The position numbers and the translations under genes are program-made. The notes under the pieces were generated by a model. It was not told where the DNA came from. It saw only the letters and a list, made by a program, of their open reading frames with translations, and searched no databases. 64,000 nucleotides of DNA from a virus: the IMG/VR virus record IMGVR_UViG_3300008111_000001. One strand, written 5' to 3'. Shown here piece by piece: positions 1,784-13,295 of this stretch (positions within the stretch are counted from its first letter, which is position 1; each line of letters opens with the position of its first letter).

Positions 1784-3038
1784 TATGACTGATGTATTAA
1801 AAACTAAAAAAAGAGACTATAAATATAACGGTCCAGTAGATAGCTCAGACTATAATGCCAGGATAGAAGAAAACTATCAAGACCTGGTTTATCTTTATAA
1901 TAGAGCAAATATTATAGATGCCCGACTTGCCACTGCTTTCGAGAGGGTTTTGAAGGATCACATATTTCTTGCAAACGCAATACAAGACTTGGTCGATAGG
2001 GTATCAGCTCTTGAATCAGCTTCTAATACCTTGTCAATATATTCCTTTTCACAGCTCGACTATGCAACTTTTGTTGGCACGAGTTTTTCTATTCCAGGGA
2101 CAGAATTATTAAGCTTTGATCCCATATATAATATCGTGACCCTACCTAGGGTTTCAAGTGGTTCGTTTTCTAAGCTAAAGTTTGGCCAATCTGGCGTTGG
2201 CCAAATAGTCCCAGACTACTTTAAAACCAGAATAGATATTTCATATGCCGGAGTAGATACCTCTGGAGCCGTAATAGATAGCACTCCAATATATAACTGC
2301 ATTCTAGACGCGCCCGATAAGGTTTGGAAAAGAACGGTAGTCTCAAATACAAACCCAACAACTGGCGCACAACTAATGCTGTATGTCCAAATACCTAATG
2401 ATGCTGTGGGCATCTTAAGATCCAATGTTATCAAACTAAATCCCTTCCCTGCCCTTGGCTGTGAGATATACTCAATTGAGTATACGACAGTTGATAATCC
2501 ATCTTTATCACCCGCAGATACTTGGATACCATTAAATAAAAATAGTTTCTATGACTCTGTGGCTTCAGCTGTAGGAAAAGTTGCCCCTGGTGGATGGTCA
2601 ACTCTTGGTTCTGATTCTATAAAAAATTCTGGTCCACTTTGCTTCCAGTTTCCAGAAACAAATATAACAGCCATAAGAATAAAAATGAATCAAAAAAATT
2701 ATCTAACAGAGGCCGGACAATACGTATACACATATGGTCTTTCTGATCTAGATGTTAAATATGAAAAGTATCTGCCAACAGGAAAGATGATCATAAAGTA
2801 TTCTGCTCCAGCTGGCGATGTAATAGAAGAAGTGACAAATGTCTCACCCAAGATATATAATGTAGCGGAAAGCCAACTAGACGAAGCGTTCAGTTACAGA
2901 ATTATATACGATGATGCAGGCACCTATAGCCTCACTAACCCCGGTGCCAATAACCATGTGTGGATAGAGGTTACCTTAAACCAGTTGGATGACAAAACTG
3001 CACCAGTTCTTTCTGATTTAATTATTGAATATATCTAA
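1776..3038 (+). CDS. Putative virion structural protein
   Basis: 420-aa ORF with an N-terminal coiled-coil segment (YKYNGPVDSSDYNARIEENYQDL) followed by a beta-rich body. Confidence 0.55.
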   Translation: MNDMTDVLKTKKRDYKYNGPVDSSDYNARIEENYQDLVYLYNRANIIDARLATAFERVLKDHIFLANAIQDLVDRVSALESASNTLSIYSFSQLDYATFVGTSFSIPGTELLSFDPIYNIVTLPRVSSGSFSKLKFGQSGVGQIVPDYFKTRIDISYAGVDTSGAVIDSTPIYNCILDAPDKVWKRTVVSNTNPTTGAQLMLYVQIPNDAVGILRSNVIKLNPFPALGCEIYSIEYTTVDNPSLSPADTWIPLNKNSFYDSVASAVGKVAPGGWSTLGSDSIKNSGPLCFQFPETNITAIRIKMNQKNYLTEAGQYVYTYGLSDLDVKYEKYLPTGKMIIKYSAPAGDVIEEVTNVSPKIYNVAESQLDEAFSYRIIYDDAGTYSLTNPGANNHVWIEVTLNQLDDKTAPVLSDLIIEYI

Positions 3039-8129: not shown

Positions 8130-8299
8130 TACTTTTAGATCTTATTAAGTTAATAGTATTTTCATTTATCTTTAACTGGTGTATATCTTTGCAAATACTA
8201 CAGCAGTCTTTAGATTCCTCTAAAAAAAGACAAAAGATTACTGCAGTTATATTGAGTATGTTAGCTGGGGCTTTGGCTGGTGCTGTGCTAATATGGTAG
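8126..8299 (+). CDS. Small membrane protein (not in ORF track)
   Basis: GTG start overlapping the thyX stop; 57 aa with two hydrophobic stretches; fills the gap up to the deaminase. Confidence 0.5.
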   Translation: MILLDLIKLIVFSFIFNWCISLQILQQSLDSSKKRQKITAVILSMLAGALAGAVLIW

Positions 8300-8763
8300 T
8301 TGATTTTATATCAAGAAAAGATATTCAGTACATGAATTTATGTATGCAAATATCTAAAATATTTTCTACTTGTGGAAAAAAGAAATACGCAGCAATATTA
8401 GTTGATGATCTTGGACATGTGGTTGGGATGGGATATAATGGTGGCGCTAGCGGTCTGCTTCATTGTGAAGACGGTGGTTGTCCAAGATATATAGAAAATT
8501 CACCAAATGGTTCGATATATGATAATTGTATAGCAGTGCATGCAGAAGCTAACGCTCTGCTACATTCAGATTATTCTGCTAGGCCAAAAAAATTGTATGT
8601 AAATGGACCGCCATGTTTCTCTTGCGCTAAACTGATTGCAAATTCAACAGTTGAAACTGTATACTATGTTTGCGACACTGCATATGCTAATTGGCATGAG
8701 GTTAAGAATTTTCTAGAAAAGTGCTCAGTAAAAACTATAGAGGTAAAAAATGCCAGCTGCTAA
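8293..8763 (+). CDS. dCMP deaminase
   Basis: Zinc motifs HAEANAL and PCFSC; STC...GYNG pattern of the ComEB/dCMP deaminase family. Confidence 0.88.
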   Translation: MVVDFISRKDIQYMNLCMQISKIFSTCGKKKYAAILVDDLGHVVGMGYNGGASGLLHCEDGGCPRYIENSPNGSIYDNCIAVHAEANALLHSDYSARPKKLYVNGPPCFSCAKLIANSTVETVYYVCDTAYANWHEVKNFLEKCSVKTIEVKNASC

Positions 8764-8956
8764 ACTAAACTACATATTGGTTTATAAAGAACACAGCCAA
8801 ATATATGGTTGTTCTTCAAAAAAGATTGCGATGGAAAGTCCACCGCCCGAGGGCTATTCGGTAGATGACAAAAATGTTTTTTTTATAACATTTGAGCCCG
8901 ATACCGATAGTATAAGCATACATAAAGTAAATAATCAGGAAGAAAGTAATGAGTAA
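8750..8956 (+). CDS. Hypothetical protein
   Basis: 68-aa ORF coupled to neighbours. Confidence 0.55.
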   Translation: MPAAKLNYILVYKEHSQIYGCSSKKIAMESPPPEGYSVDDKNVFFITFEPDTDSISIHKVNNQEESNE

Positions 8957-9182
8957 GAAACAATCATACAAAAAAAAGATAAGCCTAAAGCTAAACGTAG
9001 AAGATACAGCTATAGTCATACCTTATGATGTAGCTATGCATATAGCTGAAACATATGATTTCGTGTCTATGGATGCAGAAGAAGAACATGTTCAATATTA
9101 TAAGGACGTTGCTGATCTAGTTAGAGCGCAGGCAAATGAGAATCGCCATGAGTTACAGGATGATGAGTATGAAGAATGGTGA
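8949..9182 (+). CDS. Hypothetical protein
   Basis: 77-aa ORF coupled to neighbours. Confidence 0.55.
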   Translation: MSKKQSYKKKISLKLNVEDTAIVIPYDVAMHIAETYDFVSMDAEEEHVQYYKDVADLVRAQANENRHELQDDEYEEW

Positions 9183-9432
9183 GAAGACTCTTTTTATTTT
9201 TATGATGTTTGCTCTTGGCTCATTAATTGGCAAATCTCAGTCTAAAAAGAAAATAGTTGAAAAATCAAAAGAGCCAAATGTTGCGCAATATTTAAATAGA
9301 CTAATTGAATTTTATGATTCCAATACACTAGATATTGTTGAGGATGAATTTCTAAATTTAGTAGACTTTGGAATGAGCCCAAAAAATGCTTTTGGTGCTG
9401 TAACACACAAGCAGGTAATTAATAATGATTGA
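9169..9432 (+). CDS. Small protein with an N-terminal membrane anchor
   Basis: LFIFMMFALGSLIG followed by a basic segment; start uncertain (9136-9203). Confidence 0.5.
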   Translation: MKNGEKTLFIFMMFALGSLIGKSQSKKKIVEKSKEPNVAQYLNRLIEFYDSNTLDIVEDEFLNLVDFGMSPKNAFGAVTHKQVINND

Positions 9433-10216
9433 TTTATGTGTAGTTAATTATAATACAAGACCACTTTTAAATAGATTTTTAGATTGTCTTCATAATGATC
9501 TTCATAATCATCCCAAGGTTTGGAATTTGTATATCGCAGATAACGATTCTACGGACGATAGTGTTGATTGGTTAAAGTATAATTATCAGAGATATAGGAT
9601 TAATAAATTCTATCATAATGATAACATTGGCTACTCCGCTGCTTGTAACCAACTCGCTGCTGAAGGAAGATCAGATATTATATGCCTACTCAACGCTGAT
9701 GTATGGATAGATAATGAAAATTTAGTTAGAGCAGCAAATATATTTGATGAAAATCCCGATATTCATATTTTAGGGCCAAAGCAAAGAGATGAGAATGGTT
9801 TAATCACCCATGCCGGTATAGTCGGCACTAATACAGCTCCTAGACATCGGGGATGGCGTCAAAGCGATTTTAATGATGAGCTATTTAAAGATAGAATTAA
9901 TTGCGTAACAGTTTCTGGCTCTGCCTACTTTATTCGTCGTGAAGTTTGGAATACACTGACTAATAATCCTAAATATAGAGAAATGTATCCAAACGCAACT
10001 GGAGCATTTTTGCCGACTCCTCATTATTATGAGGAAACCTGGTGCTCTTATTTTGCTAGGCATCTTGGCTATAATGTAGTTTATGATGGCAGTGTATCAA
10101 TAGGACATAGTTGGCATAAATCTTCTGCTGTTGGTGGCGAGGCAGATGGTAAGTTTTCTGTTAGTAGAGATATTTTTAGAAGAGCTTGCGATTTTATTGG
10201 GATAGAAAGAGACTAA
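9425..10216 (+). CDS. Glycosyltransferase family 2
   Basis: VVNYN, IADNDSTD, NIGYSAACN, LLNADV, VSGSAYFIRR, YYEETW. Confidence 0.88.
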   Translation: MIDLCVVNYNTRPLLNRFLDCLHNDLHNHPKVWNLYIADNDSTDDSVDWLKYNYQRYRINKFYHNDNIGYSAACNQLAAEGRSDIICLLNADVWIDNENLVRAANIFDENPDIHILGPKQRDENGLITHAGIVGTNTAPRHRGWRQSDFNDELFKDRINCVTVSGSAYFIRREVWNTLTNNPKYREMYPNATGAFLPTPHYYEETWCSYFARHLGYNVVYDGSVSIGHSWHKSSAVGGEADGKFSVSRDIFRRACDFIGIERD

Positions 10217-10223
10217 TTCACCA

Positions 10224-11102
10224 ATGCTAACATACGGCTCACTTTTTTCGGGCGCAGGAGGAATAGATATTGGTCTAGATAATGCTGGTATGAGCTGTAA
10301 GTTTCAAGTAGAGATAGATGAAAATTGTCAACAAATATTACAGTACAATTGGCCTAATGTCTTAAAATTCAAAGACATAAAAAATGTTAATGGATATGAT
10401 TTACCGGAAGTAGACTTAATTGCGTTTGGATCTCCATGTCAAGACTTATCTACTGCTGGGAATAAAACAGGACTTTATGGAAATAAATCTATTTTATTTT
10501 ATGAAGCTACAAGAATAATAAAAGAAATGAGAGCCAAAACGAATGGACAATACCCAAAATGGTCAATCTGGGAAAATGTTGTTGGAGCCTTATCTTCCAA
10601 CGGAGGTTCCGACTTTGGGCAAGTCCTCCGAGAAATGGATGAAGCAGGGGCGCATTTCAGTGAATGGGCAGTGTTGGATGCACAATACTTTGGAATACCC
10701 CAGCAACGAAGAAGAGTTTACGTCATCTCTGTCTATGATTCTGTTATCGCCAAAAGATGTCCAGAAAAAATATTTTCTCTCAGCCAAGGCAGCGATGGGA
10801 ATTCTTCGAAGAGTATCAAGAGAGAACAAAAAGATTCCACAGAAATTGCTAGTTGCCTTAGAAGCGGTGGCCAAGGAGGAGTCCCCTCAAGTAGGGGAGA
10901 ACATTTAGTTGTTGAGTCAGAAAAAAGGGTTAGAAGACTTACTCCAATTGAATGGGAAAGACTCATGGGCTGGCCGGATAATCACACCTTATTCCGTATT
11001 GATGGACAGACTAACTCAGACACAATAAGATATAAAATGTGTGGTAACGGAGCCGCATCACCTGTGGTAAAATGGATAGCAGATCAAATAAAGGAGATAT
11101 AA
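10224..11102 (+). CDS. DNA cytosine-C5 methyltransferase
   Basis: Motif I LFSGAGG, motif IV GSPCQDLS, motif VI ENV, motif VIII QQRRRVY, RRLTPIEWERLMGWPD, and motif X MCGNG. Confidence 0.93.
   Translation: MLTYGSLFSGAGGIDIGLDNAGMSCKFQVEIDENCQQILQYNWPNVLKFKDIKNVNGYDLPEVDLIAFGSPCQDLSTAGNKTGLYGNKSILFYEATRIIKEMRAKTNGQYPKWSIWENVVGALSSNGGSDFGQVLREMDEAGAHFSEWAVLDAQYFGIPQQRRRVYVISVYDSVIAKRCPEKIFSLSQGSDGNSSKSIKREQKDSTEIASCLRSGGQGGVPSSRGEHLVVESEKRVRRLTPIEWERLMGWPDNHTLFRIDGQTNSDTIRYKMCGNGAASPVVKWIADQIKEI
10543..10908 (+). CDS. Out-of-frame overlapping ORF resembling the beta polypeptide of M.EcoHK31I-type methyltransferases
   Basis: 121-aa +1-frame ORF lying entirely inside the MTase gene; SSLSMIL...VQKKYFLSAKAAMGILRR...KKIPQKLLVALEAVA. 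Confidence 0.6.
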   Translation: MDNTQNGQSGKMLLEPYLPTEVPTLGKSSEKWMKQGRISVNGQCWMHNTLEYPSNEEEFTSSLSMILLSPKDVQKKYFLSAKAAMGILRRVSRENKKIPQKLLVALEAVAKEESPQVGENI

Positions 11103-11501
11103 ATGTCGGATAAATTAAATCCATGGATATACAATGCAGAGGTAAAAAAAGTTGTTGATGGTGACACTTTTGATATTATTATTGACCTTGGTTTTGACGT
11201 GCTCAAAAAGGGTAGAGTTCGCTTATATGGCGTTAATACTCCGGAAAGCAGAACGTCTAACGTTGAAGAAAAGAAGATGGGATTAGCTGCAAAAGAGTTC
11301 ACGGACCAATGGTTAACCGCCGCCAATCACAAAGTTAAAATTGAAACTATTATTGATAAGAACGAAAAGTACGGAAGAGTTCTGGCAAGAGTGTGGAATG
11401 AGGCTGAAGAGTGTCTAAATGATGCTATAATAGCGTCTGGTCTTGCTAGAGCATACTTTGGCGTAGGCGATAAAACATTCACTGAATTCAAAAAGGACTA
11501 A
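11103..11501 (+). CDS. Thermonuclease (SNase-like)
   Basis: VVDGDTFD, RVRLYGVNTPES, KYGRVLA, LIASGLA-type motifs. Confidence 0.85.
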   Translation: MSDKLNPWIYNAEVKKVVDGDTFDIIIDLGFDVLKKGRVRLYGVNTPESRTSNVEEKKMGLAAKEFTDQWLTAANHKVKIETIIDKNEKYGRVLARVWNEAEECLNDAIIASGLARAYFGVGDKTFTEFKKD

Positions 11502-11502
11502 A

Positions 11503-11922
11503 GTGCAAACATTTTTACCGTACGCAGATTTTGAAAAATCTGTAGAAGTATTAGACTATCGCAGATTGGGGAAGCAACGTGTTGAAACATTTCAAGTTCT
11601 TAATATTTTACTTGAAAGAACGCCTACGAAAGGTTGGCGAAACCATCCAGTCACGCTAATGTGGACCGGGTATGAATCAGCTCTGAAGTTATATCAAAAT
11701 ATAACTATCCGTGAATGGGTTCGTAGAGGATACAATAACAATATGCAATACGAAGAAATAGAACCGGGAACTGTTGTAATGCCAGCCTGGTTTGGCAATG
11801 AAGAATTCCATAGATCACATAGATCAAATCTTCTTCGTAAAGACTTTGGATATTATTCACAGTATTTTGATGAACCAAATGACCTAGAATATTATTGGCC
11901 AGGAGTAAGCTATGCCTCTTAA
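11503..11922 (+). CDS. MSMEG_6728-like / pyrimidine-dimer glycosylase (DenV) superfamily protein
   Basis: MQTFLPY...LDYRRLGKQRVE...WRNHP..MW...HRSHRSNLLRKD. Confidence 0.75.
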   Translation: MQTFLPYADFEKSVEVLDYRRLGKQRVETFQVLNILLERTPTKGWRNHPVTLMWTGYESALKLYQNITIREWVRRGYNNNMQYEEIEPGTVVMPAWFGNEEFHRSHRSNLLRKDFGYYSQYFDEPNDLEYYWPGVSYAS

Positions 11923-12316
11923 AGTATTTTTATCTGGAGCCATTGAAGGTGTCGAAGAATATGGTCGCAGTTGGAGAAAAGCTGCTACTGAAAAGCTGCA
12001 CCTTTTTGGTTATGATGTTTTAGATCCAACACTAATCTTCGATAAAGAGTATGAAACTCCAGAAGAAATTGTTGAAAAGAATTTGTTTTTACAGCGCAGA
12101 GCCGATATAATTCTTGTAGAATATATGATCAAAGATCGCCCATATATAGGAACTGATTTTGAATTAGCTTGGGCTAAATTCAACAATCAACCCGCAGTAG
12201 TTTTCTGCTGTGATTCAAATAAAAATAGAGTTTATTTGAAATATATGGCAACAAAACTTGCATCATCGATGCAAGATGCGATAGAATATATCGCAACCAA
12301 TTATCCATCAAATTAA
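11912..12316 (+). CDS. Nucleoside 2-deoxyribosyltransferase-like protein
   Basis: VFLSGAI...VLDP...ADIILV...GTDFELAWA pattern of the NDT fold. Confidence 0.75.
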   Translation: MPLKVFLSGAIEGVEEYGRSWRKAATEKLHLFGYDVLDPTLIFDKEYETPEEIVEKNLFLQRRADIILVEYMIKDRPYIGTDFELAWAKFNNQPAVVFCCDSNKNRVYLKYMATKLASSMQDAIEYIATNYPSN

Positions 12317-12330
12317 CGAAAGGTAATACA

Positions 12331-12525
12331 ATGTCAGATAACAAGTTGAAGTATTTCACAGTAACAACAACAGCAATCGTCAAGGCCAACAATAAGACCG
12401 AGGCGGAAAAGCTGGCTATGTCAACTGGTCGTCGTCCAGTCGGCGTTGCTGGAGAGGTAATCTTCAAGGACGTTGAGATCGAGCGCATCTCGGCTGTTGA
12501 GGCCCACGATCAGCTCGTTGGCTGA
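12331..12525 (+). CDS. Small hypothetical protein with GC-richer codon usage
   Basis: 64 aa; GAAAGG SD; frequent GC-ending codons (AAG, GAG, GTC, ATC). Confidence 0.7.
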   Translation: MSDNKLKYFTVTTTAIVKANNKTEAEKLAMSTGRRPVGVAGEVIFKDVEIERISAVEAHDQLVG

Positions 12526-12551
12526 GTAGTTCAGCAAACGTATTTGTTGTG

Positions 12552-12579
12552 GCTTGAGGGGGAGCAATCCCCCTCAAGC
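12552..12579 (+). terminator. Intrinsic terminator-like hairpin
   Basis: Perfect 12-bp stem GCTTGAGGGGGA/TCCCCCTCAAGC with a GCAA tetraloop, followed by TGTTT. Confidence 0.7.
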
Positions 12580-12602
12580 TGTTTCTAAGGATTGGATATT
12601 TT

Positions 12603-13295
12603 ATGATAATAGCTCAAATGATAGGCAAGAATGAATCCGAGAGATTTCTTGAAGATGTCTTAGAAAGACTATCTTCACAAGTAGATAAGATTGTTTTTAC
12701 AGATGATTGTTCTGATGATAACACTATTGAAATAGCTGCAAAATACGCAGAAGTTTTTCAGAGTCCAGAACCTCTATTCAAAGTGCACGAAGGCAAGCTA
12801 AGAGCTTTTGCGTGGGGAAACTTAGAAAAGTTTGCCTCTGTTGGCGATTGGATAATCGCTATAGATTGCGACGAGATGCTACATCACATTAATGAAATGC
12901 CAATAAGAGATGTTTTGGCTCAGTCTCCAAATGATGTTGTTAATGTTAGGTTCTATCATATGTGGAACGATTCTCAATATCGAGTGGATAAACTTTGGGC
13001 GCCAAACAATAGTTCAAGAATATTTAGATTTGTTCCAAATGGCGGATTTGCAAATAGACAACTCGCCTGTGGATCAGAGCCTACGTATGTAGCAGATTGG
13101 ATTCGCCAAAGAAATTGGTGGCTTAACTCCGGTTTAGTCATGCAACATTTAGGATATGTTAAGGATTCCGACAAAAAAGATAAATATTCAAGATATTCAG
13201 AGATAGATGGTGGTAGATTTCATAACGGAGATCATATTAATTCAATAATGGACGAAAACCCAGTCTTAATTGACTGGGGTACATTTGGTATATAA
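12603..13295 (+). CDS. Glycosyltransferase family 2-like protein
   Basis: KNE...IVFTDDCSDDNT...WIIAIDCDE...MQHLGY. Confidence 0.82.
   Translation: MIIAQMIGKNESERFLEDVLERLSSQVDKIVFTDDCSDDNTIEIAAKYAEVFQSPEPLFKVHEGKLRAFAWGNLEKFASVGDWIIAIDCDEMLHHINEMPIRDVLAQSPNDVVNVRFYHMWNDSQYRVDKLWAPNNSSRIFRFVPNGGFANRQLACGSEPTYVADWIRQRNWWLNSGLVMQHLGYVKDSDKKDKYSRYSEIDGGRFHNGDHINSIMDENPVLIDWGTFGI

Follow-up and report, generated by a model that had tools for sequence, protein, structure and literature searches.

A conserved gene nested in the +1 frame of a viral C5 cytosine DNA methyltransferase gene, and its possible role as a second subunit of the enzyme

In split C5 cytosine DNA methyltransferases (C5-MTases; MTase, methyltransferase) of the M.AquI type, the alpha chain carries motifs I-VIII together with a portion of the variable region, and the beta chain carries the rest of that region and motifs IX-X. 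M.EcoHK31I is also made of two polypeptides, the coding sequence of the beta chain lying wholly inside the alpha gene and being read in a different frame. The enzyme is active only with both chains present; alpha contains motifs I-VIII, the target-recognition domain (TRD) and motif X, beta contains motif IX, and beta associates with alpha by way of its N-terminal part (PMC2836561, PMC3404938). Fragments of M.SssI, M.HhaI and M.BspRI, even overlapping ones, reassemble, and the best cut lies between motif VIII and the TRD (PMC3404938). The locus described here lies in a stretch of 64,000 nucleotides (nt; 'the window'), part of the virus record IMGVR_UViG_3300008111_000001 of IMG/VR (193,906 bases), in which a C5-MTase gene contains a 121-codon open reading frame (ORF) in its +1 frame. 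Comparison of homologous sequences showed this nested ORF to be under purifying selection at the protein level, and in relatives to be joined to the MTase's C-terminal half. Taken together, it is probable from these comparisons that the ORF is a real overlapping gene and that its product is a trans-acting subunit of the MTase. In double-stranded DNA phages, it is rare for long genes to overlap on the same strand with selection clearly acting on both frames, and such overlaps are discarded by standard gene callers.

The features of the locus are as follows (positions are those of the window):

10224..11102, plus strand: main-frame C5 cytosine DNA methyltransferase, 292 amino acids (aa) (ORF list; PF00145 E=6.8e-57; TIGR00675 E=8e-54)
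10434-10442, plus strand: motif IV of the main frame, PCQ
10524..10533, plus strand: purine-rich GAAATGAGAG (KEMR in the main frame), lying upstream of the nested ATG and perhaps serving as a weak ribosome-binding region (sequence)
10543..10908, plus strand: nested +1-frame gene, 121 aa, ATG start and TAG stop (ORF list; homologue conservation)
10543..10713, plus strand: nested-protein leader (residues 1-57), sharing its DNA with MTase motifs VI-VIII
10572-10580, plus strand: motif VI of the main frame, ENV
10701-10715, plus strand: motif VIII of the main frame, QQRRR
10714..10878, plus strand: helical module of the nested protein, residues 58-112, SSLSMILL..KYFLSAKAAMGILRRVSRENKKIPQKLLVALEAVA (AlphaFold 2 (AF2); alignment A4)
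10749..10883, plus strand: main-frame residues ~176-220, largely a passenger stretch (identity in the +1 frame relative to the main frame; codon periodicity)
10929-10979, plus strand: main-chain motif IX, VRRLTPIEWERLMGWPD, which lies beyond the 3' end of the nested gene (alignment A2)

The main chain is one uninterrupted ORF in which, by alignment with 27 homologues (A2), the motifs that define a C5-MTase (PF00145) are all present, in canonical order and invariant: I (FxGxG), IV (PCQ), VI (ENV), VIII (QxRxR), IX (RxLTxxExxRLxGxPD) and X (GNG/GNxV). The motif IX-like segment RRLTPIEWERLMGWPD, which an earlier reading made from the sequence alone (the sequence-only reading) had assigned to the main frame, is present there, and the invariant residues of motif IX are R237, T240, E243, E245, R246, M248, G249, W250 and D252. 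The variable region is very short, and the chain, being unsplit, does not show the division into a I-VIII and a IX-X polypeptide. The same reading had described a stop-free 121-codon +1 ORF within the MTase gene, with a protein-like C-terminus; both the ORF and the quoted C-terminal peptide were found. Counted from its ATG, the ORF is 121 codons long, and between stops (10531..10908) it spans 125; the ATG lies at an offset of 319 nt within the main coding sequence (CDS), which places it in the +1 frame. From just 5' of motif VI the ORF crosses motif VIII and enters the variable region, ending 21 nt short of motif IX.

Homologues were selected by the main protein and not by the nested ORF, which gave 80 viral-contig loci, reduced to 65 non-redundant sequences with 40-74% identity to the main protein of the window. 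The +1 ORF was open with near-identical limits (113-140 codons) in 64 of these 65. Stops in the +1 frame numbered 0-1 per 10-codon bin across main residues 111-220 compared with 18-66 per bin just outside, and the +2 frame contained stops throughout. When synonymous codons were permuted, keeping the MTase protein and its codon usage, 176 stops were expected over main residues 111-220 in the 65 homologues, against 7 observed; for the AT-rich window gene, the same shuffling gave 4.4-4.7 expected +1 stops and a stop-free frame in 0.1-0.3% of cases. Taking one representative from each of seven lineages with less than 65% identity, the joint chance of an open frame was ~1e-13. Openness of the frame is, on these counts, a conserved property of the homologues.

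Amino acid identity in the +1 frame was compared with that of shuffled sequences for divergent pairs. Upstream of the ORF it showed no excess (22.6% vs 21.5% shuffled), over motifs VI-VIII it was 39% (25% shuffled), and after motif VIII it was 48%, relative to 24% in the main frame and 16.5% after shuffling. The most direct evidence for the nested gene is the periodicity of substitutions, determined in 93 pairs with 80-97% nucleotide identity. Differences per site at main codon positions 1, 2 and 3 were.106,.041 and.321 upstream of the ORF (a normal one-frame pattern),.087,.037 and.094 in the overlap with motifs VI-VIII (frozen synonymous sites), and.345,.152 and.147 after motif VIII, where the most variable position is main position 1, the wobble position of the +1 frame. 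In a sliding profile, constraint set in near the nested start, with main third-position variability dropping from 0.40-0.56 to 0.09-0.15 at residues 129-160; the frame of constraint switched at main residue ~169, and the pattern was normal again after residue 216. Escherichia coli dcm, a C5-MTase outside the clade that served as control, has 5 stops in the equivalent +1 stretch. Divergent homologues thus keep the frame open more often than the main protein with its codon usage can explain, and main-frame synonymous change is suppressed while the +1 frame is conserved with codon periodicity, as expected of dual coding. Since the wobble position shifts to the +1 frame and the dcm control contains stops, the +1 frame appears to be translated and under purifying selection, and the nested ORF is very probably a real, translated overlapping gene and not a chance open frame. 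This agrees with the sequence-only reading, which had proposed a genuine hidden gene of the kind that gene callers usually miss, and had suggested dual-frame selection as a check; both the periodicity and the +1-frame identity point to protein-level selection on that frame.

An untranslated ORF, whose openness and conservation would be by-products of the MTase sequence, of codon bias or of a constraint on RNA or DNA, is highly improbable in the light of these data. Part of the +1-frame similarity over motifs IV-VIII does shadow invariant main-frame residues (PCQ yielding PA(K/R), ENV yielding GK(M/T)), and long ORFs arise by chance in high-GC relatives, the chance of an open frame in Mycobacterium phage Dove being 0.11-0.2. 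Against this, neither the open frame nor the +1-frame identity was reproduced by the shuffles, the flanks of the gene and the +2 frame lack such a signal, as does the stop-containing stretch of dcm, and a nucleotide-level constraint would not give the three-base periodicity of the +1 frame after motif VIII, where that frame is twice as conserved as the main frame. The by-product explanation is already contradicted by the comparative sequence data.

The nested ATG occupies an identical alignment column in 49 of 61 sequences and is at most three codons off in the remaining 12, directly following a conserved TGA that closes the +1 frame; in the window this TGA (10528-10530) lies inside GAAATGAGAG. 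A GA(G/A)ATGAGAG or AAGGAG stretch is found upstream of the nested start in most homologues, the purine-rich stretch forms a good Shine-Dalgarno site when the ATG is the upstream variant, and main-frame synonymous variability falls already at residues 97-104. The leader holds a conserved SSxKWxKQGRxSxxGxCW stretch, and its residues W32, G36 and G42 are invariant or nearly so; W32 is kept even where the main frame goes from Met to Leu, forcing a CTG codon. The AF2 model gave the leader no confident structure (predicted local distance difference test (pLDDT) 45-49; residues 1-60 below 50), and the leader is, as judged from the alignments, constrained despite this. Residues 61-112 of the module are predicted to be helical with pLDDT 85-93 (helices 63-66, 81-94 and 100-111). 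The module alignment (A4) has a mean column identity of 60% with invariant L, S, G, I, R, P and L, and its consensus, SSLxxIL..KYxLSxKAAxGILRRAxRRGKxLPxxLxxALExVA, is strongly basic (RRAxRRGK). Across the nested protein as a whole (alignment A1, 58 sequences), G36, L79, S80, G86, I87, R89, R90, P99 and L106 are invariant. Main-frame residues ~176-220 seem, by contrast in identity and periodicity between the two frames, to evolve largely as a shadow of the nested gene.

When 1.84 billion representative proteins were searched with a profile built from A1, matches with E<=1e-3 fell in 5,285 clusters and those with E<=1e-10 in 3,721. In nine of the ten longest top matches, the leader and module were in frame with the variable region and motifs IX-X (PF00145 profile positions ~250-323), forming a 'beta' chain; the tenth was a frame-switch chimera. 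At locus L085, the ORF of the beta chain P0076 lies in the +1 frame of an alpha ORF that carries motifs I-VIII, the two sharing ~500 nt, and locus L084 with beta P0043 has the same layout. The M.AquI-type division into two chains was found in these sister loci, in L033-L036 and in others; in L085, L084 and further loci of this layout, the alpha and beta genes share 350-500 nt that are read in different frames. Between P0043 and the free nested protein at locus L073, identity is 83% (residues 1-112); with the C-terminus of the L073 main chain it is 97%, and the alpha partner of P0043 is 87% identical to the first 225 residues of that main chain. Free (nested) and fused (split-overlap) layouts interconvert, on this sequence evidence, between close relatives. 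One further beta, P0040, starts right at the module. Because leader and module are fused to motifs IX-X in relatives, the module is interpreted as a part of the enzyme that travels with the target-recognition half, out of frame with the catalytic core.

The +1 frame could instead be reached by programmed ribosomal frameshifting, giving a trans-frame isoform that combines the catalytic core with the helical module. In L085, a single +1 shift after motif VIII formally yields motifs I-VIII, the module, the variable region and motifs IX-X in succession; a run of arginine codons is present at motif VIII, and chimeric predicted proteins that pass from the main to the +1 frame occur in databases (P0032, P0041 and P0186). 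These points are opposed by the finding that the +1 frame is open and constrained for ~60 codons 5' of any plausible shift site, from a conserved ATG after a conserved stop. Near-invariant residues of the module (L63, I66 and L67) are encoded by the same nucleotides as the motif VIII strand (RRRVF/Y), both being conserved, and one polypeptide therefore cannot contain both, which argues against a frameshift fusion and for a separate chain. In addition, no conserved slippery sequence was seen, and a shifted product in the window would stop at 10908 and lack motifs IX-X. Frameshifting is accordingly regarded as improbable. The 80 viral loci, the 16 bacterial loci and a search for longer proteins yielded no monomeric relative in which the module follows motif VIII in frame.

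By tblastn with the 121-aa product, 194 of 50,697 phage records were matched (best E=9e-13), including Mycobacterium, Streptococcus, Ruminococcus, Vibrio, Roseobacter and Escherichia phages. In the three records inspected (Mycobacterium phage Dove, MW202796 and Streptococcus phage Javan113), the match fell in the +1 frame of an annotated C5-MTase, and this frame was open for 159-168 codons. The nested ORF also occurred in cluster-J-like mycobacteriophages, streptococcal prophages and Burkholderiales elements, and 16 bacterial genomes had the same +1 layout, mostly Burkholderiales elements together with metagenome-assembled genomes of Actinomycetes and Gammaproteobacteria. Database proteins of 117-123 aa that are 50-64% identical to the nested protein begin with M(D/E)N(T/I)Q, as it does; the nested frame is called by gene callers only occasionally and is usually missed.

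When a distant member was used as query, 530 plasmids were matched, 448 of them from E. coli. The latter are mostly non-mobilizable P1-like replicons of ~80-145 kb (one that was inspected is IncY), and the match falls in the +1 frame of a gene annotated as a Dam-family methyltransferase, which is P1 dmt. The N-terminal half of P1 dmt is a C5-MTase of the same clade as the window enzyme. Phage P1 itself (NC_005856.1, 66713..67201, corresponding to L088 1504-1992) contains an intact 162-codon +1 ORF that ends in ...IPQRYFLSSKACAGILRRGEKRRKSLPPLLQMALQSVAKA and is homologous to the nested protein; the curated P1 record annotates only dmt at this position and no overlapping gene. Across the phage, plasmid and bacterial relatives examined, the nested ORF was always in the +1 frame relative to motifs I-VIII.

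Searches for relatives of the module outside this setting gave few matches. Compared with PDB chains, the nested protein and its profile gave chance matches only (chorismate lyase, E=0.085; uS15, E=1.2), and the AF2 model of the free protein, compared with all 48,161 PDB representatives, reached a best Z of 3.8 with generic helical hairpins, no MTase being among the fold matches. Pfam, NCBIfam and PADLOC scans of the free protein and distant relatives gave no match, and the nearest clusters in the ESM Atlas were viral hypothetical proteins. One family of PHROGs v4, phrog_16143 (139 positions, 'DNA methyltransferase'), matched +1-frame proteins only (E 4.9e-4 to 1e-12), and is probably a family built from gene calls of the hidden frame and not a methyltransferase domain. 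When P0076, a fused beta, was modelled with AF2, confident predictions were obtained for the module and for the IX-X part; the variable region had pLDDT below 50 and the model a predicted template modelling score (pTM) of 0.43, at which the packing of the domains is unreadable. Foldseek with this model gave weak DNMT3 matches, to the IX-X part only. A paralogous relation of the module to motif IX was considered and rejected, as alignment of the module profile (A4) with a profile of the IX-X part (A6) by hhalign gave no alignment.

A translated product that is not part of the enzyme, such as a controller-like regulator of MTase expression or timing, a DNA-binding protein or an anti-defence factor, is rather unlikely, and would imply that the fused beta forms are secondary gene fusions. 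All of the selection evidence is compatible with any protein function, the module is as basic as many DNA binders, the main chain of the window already has motifs I-X in one piece, and no structural match puts the module inside a known MTase fold. The distribution of the module speaks otherwise: none of the matches (80 viral, 16 bacterial, 194 in phage records and 530 in plasmids) had it apart from a C5-MTase gene, at least nine divergent clusters have it in one covalent chain with the variable region and motifs IX-X, very close relatives alternate between the free and the fused form, and the family databases (PADLOC, Pfam and NCBIfam) gave no match to it.

On balance, it is therefore somewhat favoured that the nested protein is a trans-acting methyltransferase subunit acting at the junction of the catalytic and target-recognition parts, because the module is fused to the IX-X half in sister phages and because complementation between C5-MTase fragments has been published. 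In such a scheme, ribosomes would start at the internal ATG (10543) in the +1 frame of the MTase mRNA and produce the 121-aa protein, with residues 1-57 overprinted on catalytic motifs VI-VIII and residues 58-112 forming the basic helical module. In relatives, the same leader and module would constitute the N-terminus of beta and run on into the target-recognition region and motifs IX-X; in the window, the main frame would give one chain with motifs I-X, and the module would be made as a free small subunit. The small protein would then bind the main chain, or the complex of enzyme and DNA, in trans at the catalytic/target-recognition junction, and be required for full C5-methylation activity or specificity. 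The start of translation, the binding to the enzyme and the need for activity are steps that we infer from sequence. The suggestion of the sequence-only reading that the product could be an accessory polypeptide of the MTase is, given the fusion to the C-terminal half in relatives, the most likely of the roles considered; the product may also supply target recognition, as the same reading proposed.

Several observations weigh against a subunit of this kind. If the main chain is continuous, as in the window, a pure 'tether' role of the free module would be needless, and the ribosome-binding signal upstream of the nested ATG is weak in the window. In the one homologue in which the +1 ORF is interrupted (L016), the stop removes only the first ~17 nested codons, and the C-terminal helices of the nested protein (GILRRA...LP..L..AL) are lost in three of the 65 homologues (L015, L030 and L058), in which the +1 frame is still open. 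It follows from the helix replacement in these three and from the stop in L016 that the nested protein is not indispensable to every member of the clade. Among solved structures, no sequence or fold relative of the module was detected. Lastly, two weak results connect the module with the segment after motif VIII in ordinary C5-MTases, making that equivalence weak: a single hhalign match of A1 with E. coli Dcm (residues 297-337, LAQLLD..KYILTP; E=0.05, probability 1%), and the alignment of TIGR00675 with the fused beta P0076 from residue 95, at profile position 178 onwards, the free proteins giving no match. A search for Dcm relatives from which to build a profile gave only Dcm proteins with 75% identity or more, too similar for that use.

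L015, L030 and L058 are single-chain relatives, and L030 and L058 are the most divergent enzymes, with a different short variable region; the three may be natural 'module-less' controls.

In a tentative extension of the subunit interpretation, which is plausible from the distribution of the homologues, the nested gene would be an ancient and obligatory small subunit kept across a very large clade of phage, plasmid and prophage C5-MTases. If true, the catalytic chain alone would be inactive or mis-targeted, and lineages would toggle between a free subunit and one fused to the TRD half; the clade would span from ~190-kb environmental phages to P1 Dmt, mycobacteriophages and streptococcal prophages, and thousands of annotated 'orphan' phage methyltransferases would be two-gene enzymes. 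The nested gene is conserved across thousands of sequence clusters, and remains unannotated in the curated genome of the model phage P1. A role as MTase subunit would change how phage 'orphan' C5-MTases are cloned, assayed and annotated, as recoded or truncated constructs could silently lose the second protein. It would also extend M.EcoHK31I, a single textbook oddity, to a widespread design, and, with close relatives switching between nested and split-overlap layouts, would provide a natural system for splitting and re-joining an enzyme by change of frame. P1 and E. coli make the idea directly testable.

Variation was also seen in the second half of the MTase genes. In approximately one third of the homologues, motifs IX-X are encoded by an ORF of their own, whose frame relative to motifs I-VIII may be any of the three, and the ~120-codon nested ORF is kept (L033-L036, L039-L042, L045, L047, L055, L059, L060, L063-L071, L074 and L080). 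The variable regions of relatives range from ~40 to 400 residues and are composed of recurring modules (for example, TLxAxxGTGGNNxP and ARDYKGxxD), which suggests that module shuffling and splitting are frequent. The whole variable region of the window enzyme corresponds to approximately one short module (10839-10910, main frame ASCLRSGGQGGVPSSRGEHLV), and as this is one of several modules in the longer relatives L044 and L078, the window enzyme may be a minimal single-specificity version. The MTases of Dove (L001, stop at 1923-1925) and Javan113 (L003, stop at 1806-1808) have an in-frame stop in the variable region and are annotated as two CDSs each (I-VIII and IX-X). A third frame in Dove (1811..2020) holds the peptide LTANGVGTCGADDNQAQAGHL, and in the database protein P0024 the same peptide is in frame with the nested module.

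The MTase gene of the window clusters with genes (8293-13295) for the modification and repair of nucleotides and DNA; its neighbours are the following:

8293-8763: dCMP deaminase
9425-10216: family-2 (GT2) glycosyltransferase
11103-11501: SNase-like nuclease
11503-11922: DenV-like pyrimidine-dimer glycosylase
11912-12316: nucleoside deoxyribosyltransferase-like protein
12603-13295: second family-2 (GT2) glycosyltransferase

Of the known systems, M.EcoHK31I and M.EaeI have in common with the window locus that the MTase gene contains, in a different frame, the whole coding sequence of a second polypeptide (PMC2836561). The sequence-only reading had likened the nested ORF to the EcoHK31I beta subunit, and this comparison holds for the nested arrangement and not for the identity of the product: beta has motif IX and alpha lacks it, whereas in the window the main chain keeps motifs IX and X and the nested protein is without motif IX. 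By motif order, beta should fall between the TRD and motif X, whereas the nested ORF spans motifs VI-VIII and reaches into the first part of the variable region. Motif content and the published descriptions thus set the nested protein apart from M.EcoHK31I beta.

The sister loci (L085/P0076, L084/P0043 and others) resemble M.AquI in being split at the same place, with the module at the N-terminus of the second chain; they differ in that their genes overlap in different frames and are not arranged end to end. The only separate piece in the window is the small module. P1 Dmt belongs to the same C5-MTase clade and has a homologous +1 nested ORF, but carries an additional C-terminal N6-adenine MTase domain (Dam-type, PF02086) and a longer variable region, and the leader of its nested ORF is longer and different. 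In fragment complementation, the best cut site is where the nested module sits; the engineered pieces derive from a single frame, whereas here a natural piece is encoded in another frame of the same DNA. No description of a nested or overlapping gene in phage C5-MTases or in P1 dmt was found in the literature searched, to which most subscription journals and REBASE did not belong. As the putative second polypeptide of a C5-MTase, the nested gene represents a layout that is known in kind; what makes it stand out is its wide occurrence and the fact that phage P1 has it.

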